Shown piece after piece: positions 266 to 42,809 of a stretch of 64,000 bases of DNA; the stretch's first letter is position 1, and each line of letters starts with the position of its first letter. The translations under genes were made by a program, and so were the position numbers. The DNA lies in contig JBJFCE010000050.1 of assembly GCA_051888775.1 (NCBI GenBank), positions 24,879 through 88,878 on the forward strand, written 5' to 3'. The notes beneath the pieces are model-generated. The model had not been told where the DNA came from and searched no databases. It saw nothing but the letters and a program-made list of their open reading frames with translations. The DNA is from Lachnospiraceae bacterium. Its GTDB lineage: Bacteria; Bacillota; Clostridia; Lachnospirales; Lachnospiraceae.

Positions 266-1777
266 CTATCTGCGTCTGATAAGCTTCCACAAATACCGAA
301 ACTCCTCACAGTGTCCGAACACCGCCAGAAAGATCGCATTATACACTACGGTGATAATGACAACCATAACCGCAAAACCAAGGAACGTTACTTCCGGCAT
401 TACCACGCGGCTGATACCATAGATGCACGCCGCCGATATCACCAACGTGAGCAGATACTTGACCGAATCCGCAAAATAGCTCCATGCCGATCTGTCAAAG
501 CACGTCTTATAAATAATGATCGGCTTTGTGATATTGGCAATGAGTCCCGATACAATCGTTCCGATATAGACGCCGATCAGCCCGATCTTGCGCACCAATA
601 CGATCGAAACCACCAGATTCACTGCCCCTTGGATCAATGCCAGATATTTATCCTGTTCAAAAACACCTGCTGCCGTCTTATAATTTGACAGCACGATCCT
701 ATCTCCTTTGAAATAATAGTCAAACAGGATACAGCCGACGATTGCTCCCGACAAGAGCCAGCCTTTCCCAAGCCACAGCTCCACAAGCGGTGACAGCAGG
801 ATCCAGAAGCCGATTGCCGAAAATCCATAGATCCAGCAGGCAAAGAAACGGTATACCTTAAACATGGCAAACTGCTTTTCCTTATTCTCCGTTGCTATCA
901 GGTTCCCAAAGCTGGAAATGACCGAGTTGAAGATGATATTGACAAACCCGGATACAGAGTTGATGACATAGTTATAATTATCCACCACACCGACCAGCGC
1001 AACACTGACGAAGGAAGAAATAATGATACTGTCCGTCTGTAATCTTGCCACGTCACCGACCTTATGGAATACCAGTGCCTTGGTTTTATGAATAACCTCA
1101 TCGGTCTCTTCTTTTGCCAGCTTGACAACGTTCTTATCCTTTAAATACGGATAGCAATGGTTTAAGTATTGATTGACAAAAATCTTCTGCGCCAGCTCTA
1201 CGCCTGCTGCCGTCAGCAGATATACCATGAAATTTTCCGTTAAAACCAGCGCAATGATCTGTAATACTACCGTGACCAGCTTGGTAAGCGTCGCAATATT
1301 GGTCTGAATATAATTCTTCTGCTCGGCATTGACAAGACTGTATTTGTAAGATACAAAGTATGTACTTACCGTATTGAACAGAAAAATATAATAATAGATC
1401 GTCAATTCCTTCACGGAATATGTTCCGGGATTTTTTATAATATAGCGTAAAAAAGGAGAAATACAGATTCCGATAACCGCAACGACTACCGCAATACTGT
1501 AGTAAGCCTTTTTGTATAACTGCATATAGGATTTGATCTTTTCGGTGTCTTTTTCCGCCACCGGAGCATACAGGCTGTAATTGAGTGCCGTCCCGATCCC
1601 GAGTTCCGCAAGGGACAGAATGGACAAAACCCCTGTATACAACCCATTGACACCTAACAGTGTTTCGTCCAGTTTCATAATAAAAACACTGCGAAGGATA
1701 AATCCCAGTATCATGGATGCAATATTCCCGATGTAGCCAAAGGCGATATTCTTCGCCGCATGCCTTACTCTGCCCAT
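266..1777 (-). CDS. wzx: Wzx-type (MOP superfamily) oligosaccharide flippase
   Basis: 503-aa multi-span hydrophobic ORF. N-terminus AKNIAFGYIGNIASMILGFILRSVF...LLGVNGLYTGVLSILSLAELGIG is typical of polysaccharide biosynthesis/Wzx proteins. Overlaps the upstream ORF. Confidence 0.8.
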   Translation of the reverse strand: MGRVRHAAKNIAFGYIGNIASMILGFILRSVFIMKLDETLLGVNGLYTGVLSILSLAELGIGTALNYSLYAPVAEKDTEKIKSYMQLYKKAYYSIAVVVAVIGICISPFLRYIIKNPGTYSVKELTIYYYIFLFNTVSTYFVSYKYSLVNAEQKNYIQTNIATLTKLVTVVLQIIALVLTENFMVYLLTAAGVELAQKIFVNQYLNHCYPYLKDKNVVKLAKEETDEVIHKTKALVFHKVGDVARLQTDSIIISSFVSVALVGVVDNYNYVINSVSGFVNIIFNSVISSFGNLIATENKEKQFAMFKVYRFFACWIYGFSAIGFWILLSPLVELWLGKGWLLSGAIVGCILFDYYFKGDRIVLSNYKTAAGVFEQDKYLALIQGAVNLVVSIVLVRKIGLIGVYIGTIVSGLIANITKPIIIYKTCFDRSAWSYFADSVKYLLTLVISAACIYGISRVVMPEVTFLGFAVMVVIITVVYNAIFLAVFGHCEEFRYLWKLIRRR

Positions 1778-2949
1778 GTGTTGATCAGTTCTCCTGCTTC
1801 CTTTGCCCTCTTGATATAACCGGGCATGATTTTCGTTAAGTGATTTCTCTGCGTCTCCTCATTTTGCAACAGCCAGCGGAATGCCTGCAGCAGTTCTTCC
1901 GGCTCCTGCAGCTTCTGTACCGGAAGCACATATTGCTCTTCTGTGCCAAACAGATCTTTTGCAATCCCTCTTGCTTTCACGGAATATCCGACTACCAGAG
2001 TCGGAACACAGCAGGAATATGCTGCAATTGTTGCGTGTGTCCTTGCTCCGATGAACAATCGGCAGCTTGCAATATATCCTTTCAACTGTTGACAGTCGTG
2101 GTCTTCGATCATGCAGATTCGTTCCAGTTCTTCCTTTGTCATGGAAGATGCACATCTGTCATACAGCTCCCGGAGCGGCTTTCTGTCATCATCGTTTTTC
2201 CAGACGACATGCGGAATCAGCGCCACATTCATATCCGTTTCTGCAATGATGTAGCGGATCAGTCTTTCATAATTGCAAAGTGTGATGCCTTCCACCTGTT
2301 CATTTCGGATGATCATGGGACTGATATTGATCCCGACCGTATTTCCTTTGATGAAATTCTCGGGAAGCGCTGCCCGTACAGGCTCCAGACTGAATGCCGG
2401 ATCGGGATACAGCTTCACATTCTCCGTAATGCCTGCATCTGACAGTGCTTTTGCCGTCAGAGGCTCTCTTGCAACGATCAGGTCATAGCGCTTCATATCG
2501 TCGATCACATCCGCGCGTTTTAAAAGCTCCGGCTCAATGGAACAGCCCCACAGCACGGTCCGGCTGCCCTGCCTGTGAAACATCCGGTTACTCTGGATCA
2601 GCTCGTCCACGATTTCGGGATAGCAATAATTATCCCCGCCGATGGAAATATAAAGCGGCACCCGATGTTTTCCCCTGACATCCCGGAAACGGTATCGCAT
2701 AAAGGATTCCCGATCCTTTGTCAGTTTCCGCCATGCATAATATGCAATATGAGCAAGCTTGTGCTCTCTGATCTTTCGCTCCTCCAAGACATCACACAAG
2801 GCTCCGAGCGTGTATTTACGATCTTCTGCTTCGCTGTTTGTCACAAGCAGCACCTGTTTTTTTAACATATGGCAGGTACTATTTACGATCGCCTCGCAGC
2901 CATGATTCCCGCTCCCGCCATGCATATACATTACAATTTTTTCCTGCAT
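1765..2949 (-). CDS. polysaccharide pyruvyl transferase (CsaB/WcaK-like)
   Basis: Motifs MHGGSGNHGCEAI, ISIGGDNYCY and GARTHATIAAYSCCVPTLVVGYSVKARGI fit the PS_pyruv_trans family. The ORF-track start (TTG, 2970) lies inside hairpin E1. I prefer ATG 2949 (MQEKIVMYMHGG), preceded by GAAAGAGGA. Confidence 0.75.
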   Translation of the reverse strand: MQEKIVMYMHGGSGNHGCEAIVNSTCHMLKKQVLLVTNSEAEDRKYTLGALCDVLEERKIREHKLAHIAYYAWRKLTKDRESFMRYRFRDVRGKHRVPLYISIGGDNYCYPEIVDELIQSNRMFHRQGSRTVLWGCSIEPELLKRADVIDDMKRYDLIVAREPLTAKALSDAGITENVKLYPDPAFSLEPVRAALPENFIKGNTVGINISPMIIRNEQVEGITLCNYERLIRYIIAETDMNVALIPHVVWKNDDDRKPLRELYDRCASSMTKEELERICMIEDHDCQQLKGYIASCRLFIGARTHATIAAYSCCVPTLVVGYSVKARGIAKDLFGTEEQYVLPVQKLQEPEELLQAFRWLLQNEETQRNHLTKIMPGYIKRAKEAGELINTWAE

Positions 2950-2968
2950 AGGATATCCTCTTTCCCGC

Positions 2969-3146
2969 AACAGTTCAGCCTGAGAAGGAGCCGGAAGGGT
3001 ATGCTTGTGTATCCGGCGGCCCTTTGAAAACGCCGGTACTTAGCGAGGTATTATCGAGCTTAGTACCGCTACATTTGAAACGGAGCGGGAGCGTGCCGCA
3101 GGATACACAAGCATACCCTTCCGGCTCCTTCTCAGGCTGAACTGTT
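2969..3146. repeat. long-hairpin intergenic element E1 (B-type core)
   Basis: Left arm 2969-3014 is the exact reverse complement of right arm 3101-3146 (46/46). The 86-nt core 3015-3100 is related to the E4 and E6 cores. Sits between the GT2 stop (3155) and the pyruvyl transferase start (2949). Flanked by the 7-nt direct repeat ctctttc (2958-2964 and 3148-3154). Confidence 0.9.
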
Positions 3147-3154
3147 ACTCTTTC

Positions 3155-4204
3155 TCAGATTGCGTGGATTTTCTTTAATTGTTTCCACAAAAACAGATAA
3201 ACATCCGGCAGATGCCGAAAACATGAGACCTTGAGCTTATCGCTTCCCGATAGCAACCGGTATGCGCGCCAATAGCTTTCTTTTCCCATTCCTTCGATAG
3301 TCTGTCTGCATGTTTTTATATAACGCTTCTTTTCATCAGATGCGATTCCACGTGCCAATGCCAGTTTTCCTGCCACGAGCATGACCGATACCAGAATCAC
3401 ACGGTGTATGCGGTCGGAAAGCTCCGCTTCCGTGGAACCGATTCTCTTCTCAGCCTCCTGCCAGCAGGTGATCTGATCCATATAGCTTGGTCGAAATGCC
3501 GTCTCCATAGCGCCCTCCGGGTTGTGATAATAGTAATAACCCTGATAGGGCAGATGAACCGTCTTTACATTCTTCTGCATGATCTCCAGCACGAAAAGCA
3601 TATCCTCACCGATCGTTAATCCCTGCCGGAAACGTGTATCTCCGATACTGTCCCGGCTGTACAGCTTACTCCAACAGCGGCTGTCCCCGTCAAAAAGCCG
3701 GTGTTTGATAAATTCGCTGCCGTTTAAAAGCTCTGCCTCTTCATACAGTACACTTTCCTTTTGATTCTGACCGCTATCTGCCGTATTCCCAACAGCACCA
3801 TCTGTCCCCATTGGCTCTTTGAACACATCATAGGTGTCTGTCATAAAAAAATCGCAGCCGGCAACATCACAGCCATTGGTGTGCAGTGCCCGATACAATG
3901 TTTCAATCATCTTAGGACAAATCCGGTCGTCCGCATCTACAAACGTCAGATAGGCACCTGTCGCCTGTTCGATTCCTGCATTTCTTGCACCGGATACTCC
4001 CGTTTTTTCTTCATGGATCACTTTAATTCTGGAGTCCTCAGCTGCCAGTCTGTCAGCGATCTCCCCTGTCCGGTCAGTCGATCCGTTATCTATCACCAGT
4101 ATCTCCAGATCATCATAAGTCTGACAGCAAATGCTTTTCAGACAGCCCTCTAAAAAAGGCTCTGCATGATATGCCGGAACGATCACCGATATTTTTTCCT
4201 TCAA
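3155..4204 (-). CDS. glycosyltransferase family 2
   Basis: ISVIVPAYHAEPFLEGCLKSICCQTYDDLEILVIDNGSTDRT ... TFVDADD: canonical GT-A/GT2 N-terminal domain with a DxD motif. Confidence 0.85.
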   Translation of the reverse strand: MKEKISVIVPAYHAEPFLEGCLKSICCQTYDDLEILVIDNGSTDRTGEIADRLAAEDSRIKVIHEEKTGVSGARNAGIEQATGAYLTFVDADDRICPKMIETLYRALHTNGCDVAGCDFFMTDTYDVFKEPMGTDGAVGNTADSGQNQKESVLYEEAELLNGSEFIKHRLFDGDSRCWSKLYSRDSIGDTRFRQGLTIGEDMLFVLEIMQKNVKTVHLPYQGYYYYHNPEGAMETAFRPSYMDQITCWQEAEKRIGSTEAELSDRIHRVILVSVMLVAGKLALARGIASDEKKRYIKTCRQTIEGMGKESYWRAYRLLSGSDKLKVSCFRHLPDVYLFLWKQLKKIHAI

Positions 4205-6811: not shown

Positions 6812-7958
6812 CCGGTCTTTTCTTCCTCTGCTCCGTTCTTTCAGGCCGCAGCACTCGGTACTCTGCCCAGCTTCCGAGCATTAACAGGATCACAAAATTA
6901 TATAAGATGCCGCTGTTGACCTGTACTGCTTCGAGTGCCGTATAACAGACCGTCATCATTAAAAGCACAAGATTCCACAGATTCTTTGTCTTATATGCAT
7001 GGAATAACAGATAGAAAATACATCCTACAAACAAAATTGTCGGTACTATTCCGAAAGTATATACAATCCTCACAAATCCCATATCGATCTGAATTTCATT
7101 CGCCGGATTTGAAAACAGGGATGTATACAGTATTCTGTCAAACCGTACTGCCGCTCTTGCCATCTCAATTCTGTTATTCAGCAGGATATTGATATATCGG
7201 AAGATATTATCCTTATATCCGAAGATAATCGGTATCGCAGAGCCTGTAAGTAGCAGCACCACCGCTCCTGCCGACAGGATATACGGCATACGATATGACT
7301 TTTGAGTCTTTGAAACGATCCAGAATAATATCACCGTGGCAAACATCAAGATTCCACCTGTTCTGGATCGCGTCAGAGCCGTAAGCACTATTGTAAAGAT
7401 CAAAAACAGCACATAATGGTAATGCTTCATTTTTTCATGCCAGAGATAGATGCCGACTGCCACTAACATCCATGCAGCATAATGAAACGTATTCGGATGG
7501 GAATAGCCAAAGCAATACCGGAGCTCATCTTCTCCTCGTCCAAACTGCTGCACCAGATAAAGCGGTCTGAGTCCCATAAAGCTCTGGATCCCCCAGCCGA
7601 GAAATACGATCAGCACCGATGTCCAGACTGCCAGAAATACCCGTTTGCAGGAAATCCCCTTGGATGCCAGAATCAGGACAGATGCACGAAGCAGCATATC
7701 AATTCCCCACCCGGATACAAAGTATGCTATGACGCCCAAAACGGTCATCGCAGCAATCAAAGCCCATTCCCGCTTCGTATATTCGGTCAGCAGGATCTTA
7801 CAAAACAGCAACACGGTAATTCCCCGAAGCATCCATGTCTGATGTTCAAAAACAACATCATACTTTTTCAGGGTATAAATTGCCAGTTCCAAAAAAACCG
7901 CGATCCAGAAGATCAGCTCACTATATTTCTGCAAATATTTTCTGCATTTTAATATCAT
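6768..7958 (-). CDS. Wzy-like O-antigen/repeat-unit polymerase family membrane protein
   Basis: 396-aa multi-span protein with a loop RGEDELRYCFGYSHPNTFHYAAW, typical of Gram-positive Wzy/O-antigen-polymerase-like proteins. GAGAGGA lies upstream of ATG 7958. Confidence 0.55.
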   Translation of the reverse strand: MILKCRKYLQKYSELIFWIAVFLELAIYTLKKYDVVFEHQTWMLRGITVLLFCKILLTEYTKREWALIAAMTVLGVIAYFVSGWGIDMLLRASVLILASKGISCKRVFLAVWTSVLIVFLGWGIQSFMGLRPLYLVQQFGRGEDELRYCFGYSHPNTFHYAAWMLVAVGIYLWHEKMKHYHYVLFLIFTIVLTALTRSRTGGILMFATVILFWIVSKTQKSYRMPYILSAGAVVLLLTGSAIPIIFGYKDNIFRYINILLNNRIEMARAAVRFDRILYTSLFSNPANEIQIDMGFVRIVYTFGIVPTILFVGCIFYLLFHAYKTKNLWNLVLLMMTVCYTALEAVQVNSGILYNFVILLMLGSWAEYRVLRPERTEQRKKRPDGGNYAGTKADSSI

Positions 7959-7993
7959 TTTCCGAATATCCTCTCAAAAACCGTGTGTCTGCC

Positions 7994-8196
7994 AGGCATT
8001 TGCAAAACTCTGCCCGTGAACCGGAGCCGGTGCTTACCAGCTTGTCGGTAGCGGGCACGCTTTCGCTACACTTCGCCCGTAGCGGTACATAAGGCACCAA
8101 AATACGGTGCCTAAGTACCGACGGACTCACAGTGCCCGCAACCGACAAGCTGGTAAGCACCGGCTCCGGTCCACGGGCAGAGTTTTGCAAATGCCT
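7994..8196. repeat. long-hairpin intergenic element E2 (A-type core)
   Basis: Arms 7994-8058 and 8132-8196 are complementary at 63 of 65 positions. 73-nt core 8059-8131: gctttcgctacacttcgcccgtagcggtacataaggcaccaaaatacggtgcctaagtaccgacggactcaca. Lies between ORF 8207-9844 (stop) and ORF 6768-7958 (start). Confidence 0.9.
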
Positions 8197-8206
8197 TATC
8201 GTACTA

Positions 8207-9873: not shown

Positions 9874-11298
9874 CTACTTTGCGCCTTTGGAAAACAACAC
9901 TACATAAACGGTCTTGAATAAAATCTTCAGATCCAGTTTCAGGGACCAGTTATCAATATAAGCGATATCAAGCTTCACAACATCATCAAAATCATCAATA
10001 TCACTGCGCCCGCTGACCTGCCACAGTCCCGTCAGCCCCGGCGTCATGGAAAGGCGCTTGCGGTAATAGGGCGTATACTGCTCAAACTCATCCACCGTCG
10101 GTGGTCTCGTACCAACCAGACTCATATCCCCGATCAGAATATTATAAAACTGCGGCAGCTCATCAATACTGGTCTTGCGGATAAATCTTCCGACACGGGT
10201 AATACGAGGGTCATCCTCCATTTTAAACATCAGCCCCTTGACCTGATTCTGGGCCATCAGTTCCTTCTTTCGCTCCTCCGCATCCACATACATGGACCGG
10301 AACTTATACACCTTGAAACGGCGCCCGTTTTTACCGATACGGGTCTGTGCAAAGGTGACCGGTCCCGGAGAATCCAGTTTGATCGCCAGTGCCACAAACG
10401 GGAACAAAATACCGGTAAACAACAGCCCGATCAGGCTCCCTACAATATCCATCAGACGCTTTGCAAACAGATGCTTGTCGTCAATATAATTTTCCTCATA
10501 GGTGATCACGGAATATCCTGCAAAATCCGCTACGGTATGAACATACGGGCTCATACCCGGAGTGTCGATACTGTAATGACAGGCAACACCCATGATCTCA
10601 AAATATTGAATGATCTCCTGAATTTCGCTTCTGCCGACCTCGGGAAGATACAAAAAGACCTCATCCAGAGGAATCTGCTTTGCAATTTCCTGATAATTGC
10701 TTTTATTTCCTACAACTTCCACGCCCTGTACCGACTCTGCCCCATGTGTCTGTTCATCCCACAACACCAGATATGAGAGCTCGATATTCAGATCCGCTTT
10801 CTCTTTCATTCTGGATAACAGCTTTTCCGCTTCGGCTGTTTCCGAAATCACCATGACCTTTTTCCGGTTCTTATCTTTGGACATATGCGTCCTGAGATAC
10901 TTTTTGATAAGCGCATGGATCAGATACGTCAGAGCCTGATTCACAACCAGAAAATAACCGAATACAAGACGGGAATAATTCTCTGCCTCCTTTACCAGGA
11001 ACAATAGAAAAATCGTCAGTATCCCAATCATGGCATTGCGCTTTAAGATAACAAAAAACTCCTCAAGATAGCCCCTGCGCACAAAATTCCGGTTCATCTC
11101 AAACATGCTGTTGTAGATTGCACAAAACAGTAATATCCCGATACAGACAAGCTTATGAAGATTCTCATAATCCACATAGGATGCATTATGAAATTTGATC
11201 CCGATTGCAATCAGATAAGAAAGAATCACGCAGAGCAGATCTACAAATAACATCAGAAAAGATTCTACTGCATCTGATTTCTTATGCGTATTTTTCAT
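9874..11298 (-). CDS. WbaP/CpsE-type polyprenyl-phosphate hexose-1-phosphate transferase (large initiating PGT)
   Basis: 474 aa with N-terminal membrane spans. C-terminal bacterial sugar-transferase domain: KRLMDIVGSL...FKVYKFRSM...IDELPQFYNILIGDMSLVGTRPP...PGLTGLWQVSGRS. Confidence 0.85.
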   Translation of the reverse strand: MKNTHKKSDAVESFLMLFVDLLCVILSYLIAIGIKFHNASYVDYENLHKLVCIGILLFCAIYNSMFEMNRNFVRRGYLEEFFVILKRNAMIGILTIFLLFLVKEAENYSRLVFGYFLVVNQALTYLIHALIKKYLRTHMSKDKNRKKVMVISETAEAEKLLSRMKEKADLNIELSYLVLWDEQTHGAESVQGVEVVGNKSNYQEIAKQIPLDEVFLYLPEVGRSEIQEIIQYFEIMGVACHYSIDTPGMSPYVHTVADFAGYSVITYEENYIDDKHLFAKRLMDIVGSLIGLLFTGILFPFVALAIKLDSPGPVTFAQTRIGKNGRRFKVYKFRSMYVDAEERKKELMAQNQVKGLMFKMEDDPRITRVGRFIRKTSIDELPQFYNILIGDMSLVGTRPPTVDEFEQYTPYYRKRLSMTPGLTGLWQVSGRSDIDDFDDVVKLDIAYIDNWSLKLDLKILFKTVYVVLFSKGAK

Positions 11299-18407: not shown

Positions 18408-19532
18408 ATGGCATCCAGACTGATCTTATATGATACATCCAACTATATTGATTTCCCGATTGGCGGACAGATTACCAGTATCTCTAATTTTCTGCTTTTT
18501 TTAACGCAAAAACATGCTTCTGAATGTCAAAATGTAATCCTTGTAGGCGTAACCACCAATCCCGACGAACTCGGGATCTGGCAACAAATTCAAATAAACG
18601 GCATTACCTTTTCCATGCTACCGGTTGCAGTTGCCAATACAGATTTAAGCCATATTCAAAAATCCCTCCGCTTGCAATTTGCCAAAGGACTGTTAAAATA
18701 CGGCAGACAACTCCATATCACCAAAAGAGACTGCTGTTATATTCACACACCGGAAGCATACGGAGTCGTAAAGCTTTTAAATCCGTTTGCCACCTGCGTC
18801 ATTTTCTCTCACGGCAGCTATTTTAACATGGAACAGTCCTTCCGTTTCTTTCAGAAAAATGTACTGATTAAAAAAGGCTTTATGCTCTATATCAAATGGA
18901 TCATCAGAAATGCAAAGCTGATCTTCGTTCTGGATGATGACAGCTATCATGCTTATTATAAATATAATCACCGCCTGATAAAAGCATTAAATTCCATTGT
19001 TTGCCCATCCGAAAATGAGATTCACGATCCTACCGGAAATCTGATCTTTGTAGGACGTCTGTCAAAAGGAAAAAATATCGGACCCATTATAGATGCAGTA
19101 CGGGATATGGATAACCGCCGCCTGTTAATCGTCGGAGACGGTGAAGAATACGATTTCCTCTCCTCAATTGCGTCAGACAATGTTCAATTCGCAGGTGCCG
19201 TCCCGCCTTCTCAGGTAAAAGAATACATGAAACAATCCGATATTTTGATCATGAATTCACTTTTTGAAGGAATCCCCATGACGATTCTGGAAGCACTCAG
19301 CTTCGGACTGCCCGTTATCACAACTCCTGTAGGAGGAATCCCTTCCGTACTGCACTTTGGTCAGGACTCTGAGAAAACAGACGGAACTGACGGACAGATC
19401 CAGGAAAAGATTGAAAAAATCTATGCTTCCTATACTGCTTATTCCGAATGTGCTTACCAAAACTCCAAGCGCTTTGACTATTTAGAGGTCAACCGTACTA
19501 TTTATCATGAATTAAAAAAGTTCTGGAAATAA
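18408..19532 (+). CDS. glycosyltransferase family 4 (only plus-strand gene)
   Basis: FVGRLSKGKNIGPIIDAV...LIMNSLFEGIPMTILEALSFGLPVITTPVGGIPSVL. Confidence 0.8.
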   Translation: MASRLILYDTSNYIDFPIGGQITSISNFLLFLTQKHASECQNVILVGVTTNPDELGIWQQIQINGITFSMLPVAVANTDLSHIQKSLRLQFAKGLLKYGRQLHITKRDCCYIHTPEAYGVVKLLNPFATCVIFSHGSYFNMEQSFRFFQKNVLIKKGFMLYIKWIIRNAKLIFVLDDDSYHAYYKYNHRLIKALNSIVCPSENEIHDPTGNLIFVGRLSKGKNIGPIIDAVRDMDNRRLLIVGDGEEYDFLSSIASDNVQFAGAVPPSQVKEYMKQSDILIMNSLFEGIPMTILEALSFGLPVITTPVGGIPSVLHFGQDSEKTDGTDGQIQEKIEKIYASYTAYSECAYQNSKRFDYLEVNRTIYHELKKFWK

Positions 19533-21431: not shown

Positions 21432-21488
21432 AGTTCCTCCAAGTCATTTCTATTTTAGTCATTTGTAAAGTTCTGTCAGAAGGTGGAT

Positions 21489-21625
21489 CGGTTGCCCACA
21501 GACCTGTCAGCGGTGGGCACGCTTTCGCTACACCTCGTCCGTAACGGTACATAAGGTGCCAAAATACGGCACCTAAGTACCGACGGACTCACAGTACCCA
21601 CCGCTGACAGGTCTGTGGGCAACCG
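21489..21625. repeat. long-hairpin intergenic element E3 (A-type core)
   Basis: Arms 21489-21520 and 21594-21625 are complementary at 31 of 32 positions. Core 21521-21593 differs from the E2 core at 7 of 73 positions. Weak outer pairing (catttg/caaatg, tgtcag/ctgaca) extends to about 21460 and 21654. Confidence 0.85.
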
Positions 21626-21669
21626 CTTGTACTGCTGACAAAATTGCTCAAATGTCCGATTTCCGATAG

Positions 21670-21856
21670 CAGTTCATCCGATGAGGCTTTTGCACGGTAC
21701 GTAAGGATATGTTGTATCCGGCGGTCCTTGAAAAACGCCGGCACTTGGCGAGGTCTTTCCGAGCCTAGTGTCCGCTGCGCTTTTCACGGAGCGAGAGCGT
21801 ACCGCAGGATACAACATATCCTTTCGTACCGTACAAAAGCCTCACCGGATGAACTG
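21670..21856. repeat. long-hairpin intergenic element E4 (B-type core)
   Basis: Arms 21670-21719 and 21807-21856 are complementary at 47 of 50 positions. Core 21720-21806 is related to E1 and E6. The arm tip cagttcatcc resembles the E1 tip cagttcagcc. Confidence 0.9.
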
Positions 21857-21864
21857 TTTCAATT

Positions 21865-22650
21865 CTATTTTATGAATTTCCCGACAAATCCGGTCAGTCC
21901 CTTATACATGCCGGGCAAAATCCCCTTTGTCTCTTCTGCGTTATAATAGGTCACAGGCGTTCCGCCGAAGGATTCCTTAAACTTCGTGATGCTTTCCACA
22001 TCCTCATTTGTTCCGGCGCCGCCCCAGTCATACTGTTTCTTCCCCTGTTCTTTAAACCACAGCATATCCTGATAATGCAGATAGCGGTTTGCAAAGCCGA
22101 TCACATTGGAAGAAATCGTATCATCCGTGCGAAATTGTGAAGCAGACTGATACAGACGCGCCCGCTCTTCCTCGACAATATAGGTATGATAAACCAGGAT
22201 TCTGTCCTCTACGGATGCCCTTGTCATAGCAAAAGCTCCCACCTGCGCATACTGTGAGATGAGTGCGAAACATTTTTCTTTCTCTGTATAACGGACACCC
22301 TTACTATGCCAGAAATCCGCAAAGAAGTCCACAAACTGTGTAATATCATCCACAGTGATCTCTTTTCCGGACAGATAGGTGCATTTAACCTGTTCACGCT
22401 GCGCGCGACGCACCTCATAGCGGCAGTTTTTGGAATAGTGAGACAGGATCGTATCCGCATCCTCGGTCAGGTCAGATAACAGTGTCTGAAATTCTACCGG
22501 ATGCTTGCCGAGCGGTCTGAGTGCTTCCTGATATCGGATCAGCCCATTCTGCTTCAGTTCATGCTCTGCATACCAACAATCAATGACATTGATTCCATTA
22601 TGTTTTTTTGATACTATACGCATATCCTTCCTGCCTTTCCGACTATGCAT
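21865..22650 (-). CDS. FemAB-like / GNAT-fold (aminoacyl)transferase, copy 1
   Basis: 261 aa. YSKNCRYEVRRAQRE...RILVYHTYIVEE...ANRYLHYQDMLWFKEQGKKQYDWGG resembles the C-terminal catalytic half of FemX/FemAB-family proteins. The start is uncertain (ATG 22650 or 22623). Confidence 0.5.
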   Translation of the reverse strand: MHSRKGRKDMRIVSKKHNGINVIDCWYAEHELKQNGLIRYQEALRPLGKHPVEFQTLLSDLTEDADTILSHYSKNCRYEVRRAQREQVKCTYLSGKEITVDDITQFVDFFADFWHSKGVRYTEKEKCFALISQYAQVGAFAMTRASVEDRILVYHTYIVEEERARLYQSASQFRTDDTISSNVIGFANRYLHYQDMLWFKEQGKKQYDWGGAGTNEDVESITKFKESFGGTPVTYYNAEETKGILPGMYKGLTGFVGKFIK

Positions 22651-34066: not shown

Positions 34067-34140
34067 TTTCTGCTTTATCTGCCCTGCTTTGCCGCATGGA
34101 TTTCTGGTTTATCTTCCCTGCTTTGCCGCACGGATTTCTG
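34067..34140. repeat. 34-bp tandem direct repeat (2 copies plus 6 nt) spanning a gene's 3' end
   Basis: 34067-34100 (tttctgctttatctgccctgctttgccgcatgga) and 34101-34134 (tttctggtttatcttccctgctttgccgcacgga) are identical at 31 of 34 positions. 34135-34140 repeats tttctg. Copy 2 contains the last codons and the stop of ORF 34109-34735. Confidence 0.9.
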
Positions 34141-34735
34141 CCAGATTTCCTTCAATATCATCCGTGACCTCCGCCACTTCATCGCTTTTTCCGAATACGA
34201 CTTTTACGGTCATCCAAAGCACCTTAACATCCATGGCAAAGCTCAAATGCTCCACATATTCCACGTCCTTTTCCAGACGTTTATCCCATTCAATGTAATT
34301 CCTGCCGCTCACCTGTGCAAGTCCGGTCAGTCCCGGACGCACTGTATGGCGCAGCTTCTCACGCTCCGTATACCACGGCAGATAACTGACTAACAGAGGG
34401 CGCGGTCCGATCAGACTCATATCGCCTTTAAAAATGTTCCAAAGCTCCGGCAGTTCATCCAGACTGGTCTTTCTGAGAAACAGACCAAACTTCGTCAGAC
34501 GCTCACTGTCCGGCAAAAGCTCCCCGTTCTCATCCCTTGCATCCGTCATGGTACGGAACTTGCAAAGCGTAAAGATCTTCTCATGATAGCCCGGTCTCTT
34601 CTGATGAAAGATCACCGGACTTCCAAGTTTCACGCGCACCAGTACCGCTACAATCAGATAGACGGGGCTTAAAATCAGCATGCCGAAAAGTGATATGAAA
34701 ATGTCAAGCAGGCGTTTGATACAATGTTGGTACAT
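34109..34735 (-). CDS. PglC/WcfS-type small monotopic phosphoglycosyl transferase
   Basis: 208 aa. KRLLDIFISLFGMLILSPVYLIVAVLV...KFRTM...LDELPELWNIFKGDMSLIGPRP...PGLTGLAQVSGRN. Confidence 0.85.
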   Translation of the reverse strand: MYQHCIKRLLDIFISLFGMLILSPVYLIVAVLVRVKLGSPVIFHQKRPGYHEKIFTLCKFRTMTDARDENGELLPDSERLTKFGLFLRKTSLDELPELWNIFKGDMSLIGPRPLLVSYLPWYTEREKLRHTVRPGLTGLAQVSGRNYIEWDKRLEKDVEYVEHLSFAMDVKVLWMTVKVVFGKSDEVAEVTDDIEGNLAEIRAAKQGR

Positions 34736-34765
34736 GGTAGATCCTTTCGTGTTGGTTTACGGAAC

Positions 34766-34918
34766 GGGATGGCCGGCAGGGCAGATGGTTTTAGGTGTAA
34801 GACACGCTCTCGCTCAGTTTCAAACGCAGCGGTACATAAGGCAGTAAAATACACTGCCTAAGTACCGGCGTTTTCAAATGGTCTTACACCCAAAACCATC
34901 TGTCCTGCCGGCCATCCC
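34766..34918. repeat. long-hairpin intergenic element E5 (A-like core)
   Basis: Arms 34766-34803 and 34881-34918 are complementary at 36 of 38 positions. Core 34804-34880 contains ...cgctcagtttcaaacgcagcggtacataaggcagtaaaatacactgcctaagtaccggcgttttcaaatg. Confidence 0.9.
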
Positions 34919-35019
34919 TGCTCGTTCTGATCCTGCATGCGAAATGCCATGTGTTTACAAATAATATTTCTGCACATGATGTTTCACTGTCTGCAATATG
35001 GTTGTTGGCAGTTTGCCCC

Positions 35020-35274
35020 GTGTCCGGTCAAGGCGGGTTCACAGCGGATGCGATCATTCGTTCTATAGGGCTTACGGATGGTATGCGATGGTATCTTGTG
35101 TCTGGAGGTCCTTGAAAAACGCCGGCACTTAGCGAGGTATTTTCGAGCTTAGTGTCCGTTGCGTTTTTCACGGAGTGAGAACGTGCCGACAGACACATGA
35201 TACCATCACATACCATCCGCAAGCTCTATAGAACGAATGATCGCATCTGCTGCGAACCTGTCTTGACCGGACAC
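35020..35274. repeat. long-hairpin intergenic element E6 (B-type core, longest arms)
   Basis: Arms 35020-35104 and 35190-35274 are complementary at about 77 of 85 positions. Core 35105-35189 is related to E1 and E4. Confidence 0.9.
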
Positions 35275-35295
35275 ACCTGAGACAGCCTCATTTTC

Positions 35296-42567: not shown

Positions 42568-42597
42568 ATTATCTCCTTAATTTAACCAGCCGCCATA

Positions 42598-42796
42598 GGT
42601 GCTTGTGAAGCTTTGCCGGCAGGGCGGTACGGGAATCCAACACCTGTCAGCTGCGGGCACTGTGAGTCCGTCGGTACTTAGGCACCGTATTTTGGTGCCT
42701 TATGTACCGCTACGGACGAAGTGTAGCGAAAGCGTGCCCGCAGCTGACAGGTATTGGATTCCCGTACCGCCCTGCCGGCAAAGTTTCGCAAGCACC
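42598..42796. repeat. long-hairpin intergenic element E7 (A-type core, inverted relative to E2/E3)
   Basis: Arms 42598-42660 and 42734-42796 are complementary at 60 of 63 positions. The reverse complement of core 42661-42733 differs from the E2 core at 1 of 73 positions. Confidence 0.9.
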
Positions 42797-42809
42797 CAAA
42801 TCTTTTCCG

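Follow-up and report, generated by a model that had tools for sequence, protein, structure and literature searches.

A 182-nt hairpin between two polysaccharide genes of a Lachnospiraceae bacterium, very probably a MITE insertion with an 8-bp target-site duplication

The DNA analysed here (the window, 64,000 nt of a Lachnospiraceae bacterium in its whole length) is a 64-kb array of polysaccharide genes nearly all on the minus strand, and between two of them, encoding a family 2 glycosyltransferase (GT2) and a polysaccharide pyruvyl transferase, stands a long hairpin, E1, which raises the question whether it was inserted there and by what kind of event. On the minus strand the junction reads TGA (3157–3155), GAAAGAG (3154–3148), t, the hairpin, gcgg, GAAAGAG (2964–2958), GATATCCT and ATG (2949–2947). 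An earlier note on this DNA, which had described the GAAAGAG pair at these positions exactly as it stands, took it for an exact 7-bp target-site duplication around a recent insert of 183 bp (2965–3147) that regenerated the Shine-Dalgarno sequence of the downstream gene. By itself the 7-mer is weak evidence, as an exact direct repeat of at least 7 nt within 8 nt of the hairpin ends is expected in about 1.2% of cases per element (shuffled flank pairs), and the window holds seven elements each with a chance of about 1%. The pair becomes decisive only in combination with an empty orthologous site and a family-wide 8-bp duplication. E1 is very probably a MITE insertion with an 8-bp target-site duplication.

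The E1 junction and its empty counterpart

The features of the junction and of the other copies in the window are collected in Table 1. The two arms of E1 are 52 nt long and 98% complementary, with the outer 46 nt perfectly paired, and the predicted RNA fold has a free energy of -136.6 kcal/mol (z = -15 against shuffles) on either strand.

Table 1. Coordinates of E1, its flanks and its sister copies in the window.
Feature	Position	Strand	Remarks
E1, complete type-A MITE	2967..3148	-	182 nt; GTAACAGTTCAGCC...GGCTGAACTGTTGC on minus strand; ends set by 120 family copies
Upstream 8-bp duplication copy GAGAAAGA	3149..3156	-	covers GA of the GT2 stop codon TGA (3155–3157)
Downstream duplication copy GGGAAAGA	2959..2966	-	7/8 identical to upstream copy
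Left terminal inverted repeat GTAACAGTTCAGCC	3135..3148	-	11/14 bases as in ISDge4 repeat GTAACTGCTCAGCA
Right terminal inverted repeat GGCTGAACTGTTGC	2967..2980	-	family consensus ends ...TTAC
Long-stem arm 1	2969..3020	.	pairs with 3095–3146
Long-stem arm 2	3095..3146	.	pairs with 2969–3020
Structured core in E1	3008..3109	-	covariance model R1: 71.8 bits, E 5.5e-15; canonical strand is the mRNA strand
Downstream gene, polysaccharide pyruvyl transferase (PF04230)	1765..2949	-	L117 ortholog 82% identical
Upstream gene, family 2 glycosyltransferase (GT2)	3155..4204	-	L117 ortholog 56% identical, full length, same C-terminus
Sister core, type-B shell (CAGGCATTTGCAAAAC...)	7993..8197	+	no flanking repeat; arms 97% complementary (7994–8196)
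Sister core, degenerate type-B shell	21460..21654	+	arms 80% complementary
Sister core, degenerate type-A shell (CAGTTCATCC...)	21670..21856	-	no 8-bp duplication of its own
E5, shell-less sister core	34766..34918	+	antisense to genes
E6, sister core	35020..35274	-	85-nt arms
Sister core, type-B shell	42596..42798	-	no flanking repeat

The earlier note had suggested searching relatives for an empty junction with a single GAAAGAG, and such a junction is found in L117 (metagenome contig Ga0129311_1000006), whose gene order matches the window across the GT2, the pyruvyl transferase and the same 503-aa gene downstream. It reads ...GTAATC TGA GAAAGAG GGATTTTC ATG CAG GAG..., where the repeat stands once and the hairpin is missing. 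This junction, the one orthologous empty site available for E1, belongs to a rather remote relative: the pyruvyl transferase is 82% and the GT2 56% identical in protein sequence. The empty site is cTGAGAAAGAggg, in which the target GAGAAAGA is present once, and the E1 junction rebuilt as empty is TGAGAAAGAGGATATCCTATG. The filled state recurs in an independent Logan assembly, the contig of which ends within the left arm, and an exact-protein look-up with the GT2 matched only the same filled site. Exact-protein look-ups with the pyruvyl transferase returned no record for either possible start, and the genome collection searched with this protein, in which the species is not represented, yielded only an unrelated alphaproteobacterial match.

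The pyruvyl transferase gene has the Shine-Dalgarno sequence GAAAGAGG, made up of the downstream duplication copy together with G2958 and G2957, with GG 7 nt before the ATG, and the same sequence in the same spacing class is present at the empty L117 junction. The right-hand GAAAGAG and the next G do supply it, and its regeneration, as claimed earlier, is a fair description.

Ends, target duplication and distribution of the type-A family

A scan of genome representatives with the pattern AACAGTTCAG-N(145-175)-CTGAACTGTT yielded at least 120 complete elements of the type-A family, with the termini GTAACAGTTCAGCC...GGCTGAACTGTTAC. The ends reach two bases further (GTAACAG...CTGTTAC), with GT in 102 and AC in 96 of the 120 matches listed. 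Among the same 120 matches, the 8-mers immediately outside these ends are identical in 43 and agree at seven of eight positions in 24, against null frequencies of 0.0002 and 0.005 in shuffled pairs; 67 of 120 thus match at seven or more positions, where about 0.5% are expected. Flank identity per position stays at 78–91 of 120 from base 1 to base 8 and collapses to the background (18 of 120) at base 9, and the type-A duplication is therefore exactly 8 bp.

E1 obeys this rule with 7/8 identity. The insertion reading of the earlier note holds, supported by the empty L117 site and the family-wide duplication, but the details shift: the element spans 182 nt with GT...GC ends (the family norm for the right terminus being AC), and the duplication is 8 bp long with one mismatch and takes in the GA of the stop codon. 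The GAAAGAG 7-mer is this 8-bp duplication seen one base out of frame, consisting of six duplication bases plus a G; in the left copy this G is the first base of the element, in the right copy it belongs to the flank. The further expectation of 6–7-bp purine-rich duplications at other genomic copies is borne out for the presence of duplications but not for the base preference, as the type-A targets are A+T-rich (73% A+T).

The matches listed come almost all from Lachnospiraceae, and the isolate Butyribacter intestini TF01-11 alone carries at least 11 type-A copies. Copies are 165–196 nt long; E1 is hairpin throughout and has no coding capacity. Conserved inverted termini, a fixed and abutting duplication, small non-coding size and dispersed copies with filled and empty sites are the marks of a MITE, and all of them are seen in E1 and its family. 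Only about 13% of type-A shells contain the structured core described below, the others having unrelated interiors, and E1 is atypical among type-A elements in carrying it.

Several further observations were made. A few type-A two-arm matches (L161, L174, L181, L185 and L193) lie in MAGs labelled Nitrospinae, Chlamydiae, Chloroflexi or Armatimonadota, some of them (e.g. L161 and L174) with family-like ends and partial duplications; these off-phylum matches could be chance, binning contamination or real spread. Stubs of about 30 nt comprising just the two type-A terminal repeats occur at L189 1100–1130 (e.g. GTAACAGTTCAGCCTTTGGCTGAACTGTTAC) and in L160, L144, L165, L206, L222, L248, L249 and L251, and are probably elements with interiors removed by palindrome deletion. 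Contigs often begin or stop inside elements, as at the end of L115 (3511–3548) and in L008, L012, L017, L044, L066, L074 and L079, and one element copy is shared by several contig ends of the MAG fecal_MAG_249; short-read assemblies are broken because of these repeats.

The following sequence of events is proposed for E1. The element is very probably a non-autonomous DNA transposon of a family spread across the Lachnospiraceae, with 14-nt terminal inverted repeats GTAACAGTTCAGCC that would be recognised by a transposase acting in trans. This enzyme would cut the target with an 8-bp stagger, and gap repair would double those 8 bases. The target GAGAAAGA, inside ...AATCTGAGAAAGAGG..., comprised the GA that ends the GT2 stop codon and the greater part of the pyruvyl transferase Shine-Dalgarno sequence. 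In the filled site the left copy completes the stop codon, and the right copy plus GG supplies the Shine-Dalgarno sequence at 7 nt from the ATG. The insertion was probably tolerated in the operon because both frames and signals survived. The survival of stop codon and Shine-Dalgarno sequence is a passive outcome of duplication plus a survival filter and not a designed one; regeneration of the latter follows automatically from the duplication. E1 is an example of an operon tolerating a transposon hit, in which the 8-bp duplication spanned both a stop codon and a ribosome-binding site, and a very stable hairpin (about -136 kcal/mol) now parts two genes that are tightly coupled in the L117 relative. 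As a by-product, the 182-nt hairpin in the polycistronic mRNA could uncouple the two genes and serve as a possible substrate for a double-strand-specific RNase. The E1 event itself is ordinary, while its folded core is unusually conserved.

As to the enzyme, IS66-family terminal repeats start with GTAAGCG and are accompanied by 8-bp direct repeats (PMC11946415), and ISDge4, a single-ORF member of the ISBst12 group, has the repeats GTGACTACTCAGCA and GTAACTGCTCAGCA and an 8-bp direct repeat (PMC12898284). Because of the GTAA ends, the 8-bp repeats and the identity of 11 of 14 bases between GTAACTGCTCAGCA of ISDge4 (PMC12898284) and GTAACAGTTCAGCC of type A, the trans-acting transposase may, with about an even chance, belong to the ISBst12 group of the IS66 family. 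The search for a parent IS covered terminal-repeat pairs 0.6–4.5 kb apart and the surroundings of orphan terminal repeats; neither the roughly 2 Mb of loci retrieved nor the window contained a transposase with type-A ends or a DDE_Tnp_IS66 gene, and candidate ORFs between or beside the repeats proved to be host genes (PfkB, NagB-like, Pth, NrdD, PheS, HydF, MFS, DegT and others).

The structured core and the other copies in the window

The core of E1, about 100 nt long, comprises an ACGCTYTCGCT mini-hairpin, P2, CGGTAC/GTACCG, TAAG/CTAAG, P4 and an AAAATAC loop. A core pattern search returned more than 114 loci, nearly all in Lachnospiraceae. Over 76 non-redundant cores and 23 predicted pairs, pairing holds in 94.8% of cells, the figure for shuffles being 77.6% (none of 500 shuffles reaching the observed value), with 327 double-sided changes against 95, whereas slid controls are only 22–38% paired. 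The G-U pairs are confined to a single strand, in E1 that of the mRNA, and the core fold is therefore strand-specific. The covariance model of the core has exactly seven matches in the window (E 4e-22 to 6e-13). Rfam (15) gave no match for the whole window at gathering thresholds, and at E <= 10 only a chance RydC match (13.8 bits) for E1.

Core copies are intergenic in 96 of 99 cases and take every position relative to the neighbouring genes (36 sense, 23 antisense, 11 convergent and 11 divergent). The neighbours are unrelated housekeeping genes, with 180 Pfam families in 120 neighbours and none recurrent; this survey revealed no enrichment near polysaccharide genes or any partner gene. The core pattern had no match in viral contigs, where the bare 14-mer terminal repeat gave single chance matches only, and blastn with E1 had no match in the PLSDB plasmids. 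Two functional readings of the core were tried and rejected: a promoter, the sole match being 9/12 and partly in variable positions, and a terminator, as there is no T-tract.

The core is housed in two unrelated MITE shells, type A and type B, and is also found alone. The type-B shell (TAGGTAATTGCGAAAC...CCTA) has abutting repeats of 8–13 nt (mostly 9–13) in 15 of 30 copies, above the null, and occurs without the core as mini-elements of 56–81 nt, several with their own duplications. The core behaves as a passenger or nested module. A tentative guess at its role, the best that can be offered, is a single-strand fold serving the propagation or maintenance of the element. It is rather unlikely, if worth stating, that the core hairpin (about 100–140 nt) is a separate mobile or selfish structured module of a previously undescribed kind, folded as ssDNA or RNA, which would enter type-A shells (with their 8-bp duplications), type-B shells (9–13 bp) or none, and the stem of which would stay paired, and even lengthen, by inverted copying of one arm or of the adjacent flank. 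This reading is entertained because of the mirrored 11-nt hypervariable blocks described below and an inverted 12-nt flank copy in L038; if true, it would mean a new route by which structured nucleic acids propagate in bacterial genomes, riding on MITEs.

Some individual copies deserve description. In L038, a type-B shell without core (3550–3632, 81 nt) and one with core (7237–7446, 210 nt) lie on the same contig, the long form being the short form plus the hairpin module and an inverted copy (ATATTGTTCAAC) of 12 nt at the left (GTTGTACAATAT), which either asymmetric deletion or an insertion copying its flank in inverted orientation could produce. Two type-A copies (L149 5638–5815 and L198 5223–5403) carry an extra small hairpin that extends the apical helix and replaces the AAAATAC loop, and the core apex therefore tolerates insertions. 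Shell-less copies of about 137–142 nt in L007, L034, L040, L042 and L081 (MAG CBFFYP01), and further ones in L003, L030, L047 and L108 ([Clostridium] symbiosum-like MAGs), have neither terminal repeats nor duplication and are conserved outside the hairpin, which is preceded by RGGAC (5') and followed by TGTGTACTCCAGAC.GAAAATAGT or TGNNTNAGGTGNTNAC (3'); the shell-less unit is therefore asymmetric and may move or function differently.

The window contains seven hairpins, the boundaries of which were set by arm alignment, with the core in sense orientation to the genes in four and antisense in three; this is a density of seven in 64 kb next to polysaccharide genes for which other genomes show no such enrichment. 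None of the six copies other than E1 has a clean duplication of its own. The tandem elements 21460–21654 and 21670–21856, 15 nt apart, are together enclosed by a direct repeat identical at 13 of 14 positions (TCATTTCTATTTTA at 21444–21457 and TCAATTCTATTTTA at 21859–21872), its length being near that of the 9–13-nt type-B repeats. The window has one large gene on the plus strand (18408–19532, GT1), all others being on the minus strand, and contains two priming sugar transferases (9874–11298 and 34109–34735) and two DegT aminotransferases, which suggests several polysaccharide loci in tandem.

A weaker analogue of the E1 duplication had been proposed at E5, where AGGATC (gatcct on the plus strand, 34740–34745 and 34929–34934) was thought to bracket a second 183-bp insert. 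The pair is present, 20 nt and 10 nt outside the E5 hairpin, and is best regarded as chance: it lies off the hairpin, it is unconserved in strains with 99%-identical PglC, which have the same filled gap with the pair reading AAGATC...AGGACC, and shell-less copies, the class of E5, are generally without flanking repeats. Comparison of the DegT-to-PglC junction (34736–35295) between the window and L118, L121, L128 and L132 revealed 560 nt with two hairpins here and in the 99%-identical strains; at 94% identity the junction measures about 150 nt and has no hairpin, and at 91% it is empty and 17 nt long. The E5/E6 site is empty in L132–L135, but the junctions of the relatives diverge too far for the insertion points to be located, and they yielded no target-site duplication for E5/E6. 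In L121, one arm of E6 has a 10-nt deletion.

The claim that E1 is recent, and the youngest copy on account of its perfect arms, is not established. E1 has a duplication mismatch and an altered terminal base, while 43 of 120 family duplications are perfect. Its arms are indeed the best in the window, but marginally so (98% against 97% at 7994–8196), and this fails as a sign of youth. Perfect arms are unusable as a clock because a change in one arm is mirrored by a compensating change in the other; E5, compared with its counterpart in a 99%-identical strain, shows a T-A to G-C change made on both arms. A 196-nt subfamily (type A with core; L172 4450–4641, L201 5575–5766, L229 2837–3028, L230 3318–3509 and L240 7358–7549) has in its left arm a hypervariable 11-nt block between two CAGAG (CAGGTTTTATG, GAAGGACCCCA, CGGGGTTCTCA, GAAGGATCATA and GAAGGACCATA), with the exact reverse complement in the right arm in four of the five copies and two bases off in L230. 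The remaining 185 nt or so are far more conserved, whole-element identity is 80–87%, and the 8-bp duplication is perfect in three of the five.

Alternative origins and comparison with known systems

The alternatives to insertion of a MITE differ in what they ask of the same data. If E1 were a native RNA signal of the operon, acting in processing, stability or attenuation, with the GAAAGAG pair as chance purine runs, then its extremely stable fold, the strong covariation of the core, the G-U pairs confined to the mRNA strand and the seven copies between co-directional genes of a single locus would all be natural; this origin is nevertheless very improbable, as it is contradicted by the orthologous junction from which the whole element is missing, and the family has defined ends and 8-bp duplications, lies in both orientations and also between convergent and divergent genes, neighbours unrelated housekeeping rather than polysaccharide genes, and matches no Rfam family. 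The empty L117 site could also be read as a secondary, precise loss by recombination between the repeats rather than as the ancestral state. Precise deletion between short direct repeats around a palindrome is a known event, and the stubs of terminal repeats show that interiors do get deleted; such a loss, decidedly unlikely here, would still need a prior insertion with duplication and so change the timing only, and the relative is distant and its junction otherwise without footprint.

Two recombination-based readings fare worse. Polysaccharide loci are classic sites of phase variation, and the core is found in both orientations in the window, which is what would be seen if the elements were invertons, their long inverted repeats recombining to flip the core and switch polysaccharide genes on and off. 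Yet what lies between the arms folds into a hairpin of its own and has no conserved promoter, no recombinase or invertase gene is nearby in the window or the retrieved loci, the arm sequences vary between copies, every strain retrieved has the same site in the same orientation, and the 8-bp direct duplications point to transposition, leaving little credence for inversion. It is hardly conceivable that the hairpins are structure-specific recombination sites like attC bordering exchangeable polysaccharide cassettes: variable sequence with a conserved fold, asymmetric unpaired bases and a position between co-directional genes would fit, but neither the window nor the loci contain an integrase, the copies are dispersed beside housekeeping genes in every gene arrangement, the apex is conserved here whereas attC has a variable apex and conserved ends, and terminal repeats with fixed-length duplications fit transposition. 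The E1 ends GTTGCGG and GTTACTC also do not fit the attC GTTRRRY (core sites RYYYAAC / GTTRRRY). MITE insertion thus remains the preferred reading, with insertion, ends, 8-bp duplication, copy number and dispersal as observed features.

Among known systems, E1 shares with IS66 (ISBst12-group) MITEs a short sequence with no reading frame, GTAA ends, an 8-bp duplication and dispersed intergenic copies. It differs in that its interior is not a deleted IS remnant, its long stem and covarying core are common to other shells, and no cognate full-length IS was found here. Correia elements of Neisseria, ERIC, RUP and BOX are likewise small palindromic repeats, some of them modular, which lie between operon genes and are transcribed as mRNA hairpins, some of them undergoing RNase III processing or changing the stability of the mRNA. 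They differ from E1 in host, ends and duplication (TA in Correia), with no sequence relation, and have conserved ends and a centre that is not a covarying module shared across families, as the E1 core is. The bcr repeats of the Bacillus cereus group are MITE-like elements of Firmicutes with folds showing compensatory changes; the likeness is one of features, and the bcr1 duplication is TTTAT against the 8 bp of E1. REPINs and REP sequences resemble the E1 family as dispersed intergenic hairpins with arms changing in a correlated way, but depend on RAYT (Y1/HUH) transposases for movement and lack a target duplication, whereas here terminal repeats and fixed 8-bp duplications are present and no RAYT was seen. 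With attC the core shares a fold more conserved than its sequence, one strand with asymmetric unpaired bases and a place between co-directional genes, and differs in the missing integrase and R'/R'' consensus, the conserved apex and the dispersal with target duplications.

A literature search on the terminal-repeat sequences and on Lachnospiraceae MITEs retrieved nothing relevant, and the two abundant MITE families of gut Lachnospiraceae defined here are apparently undescribed. They cause breaks in metagenome assemblies, serve as markers of differences between strains in capsule and exopolysaccharide loci, and can pass for regulatory RNAs. The strong covariation of the core and the mirrored stems are the sole unusual parts of these elements, and could repay study.
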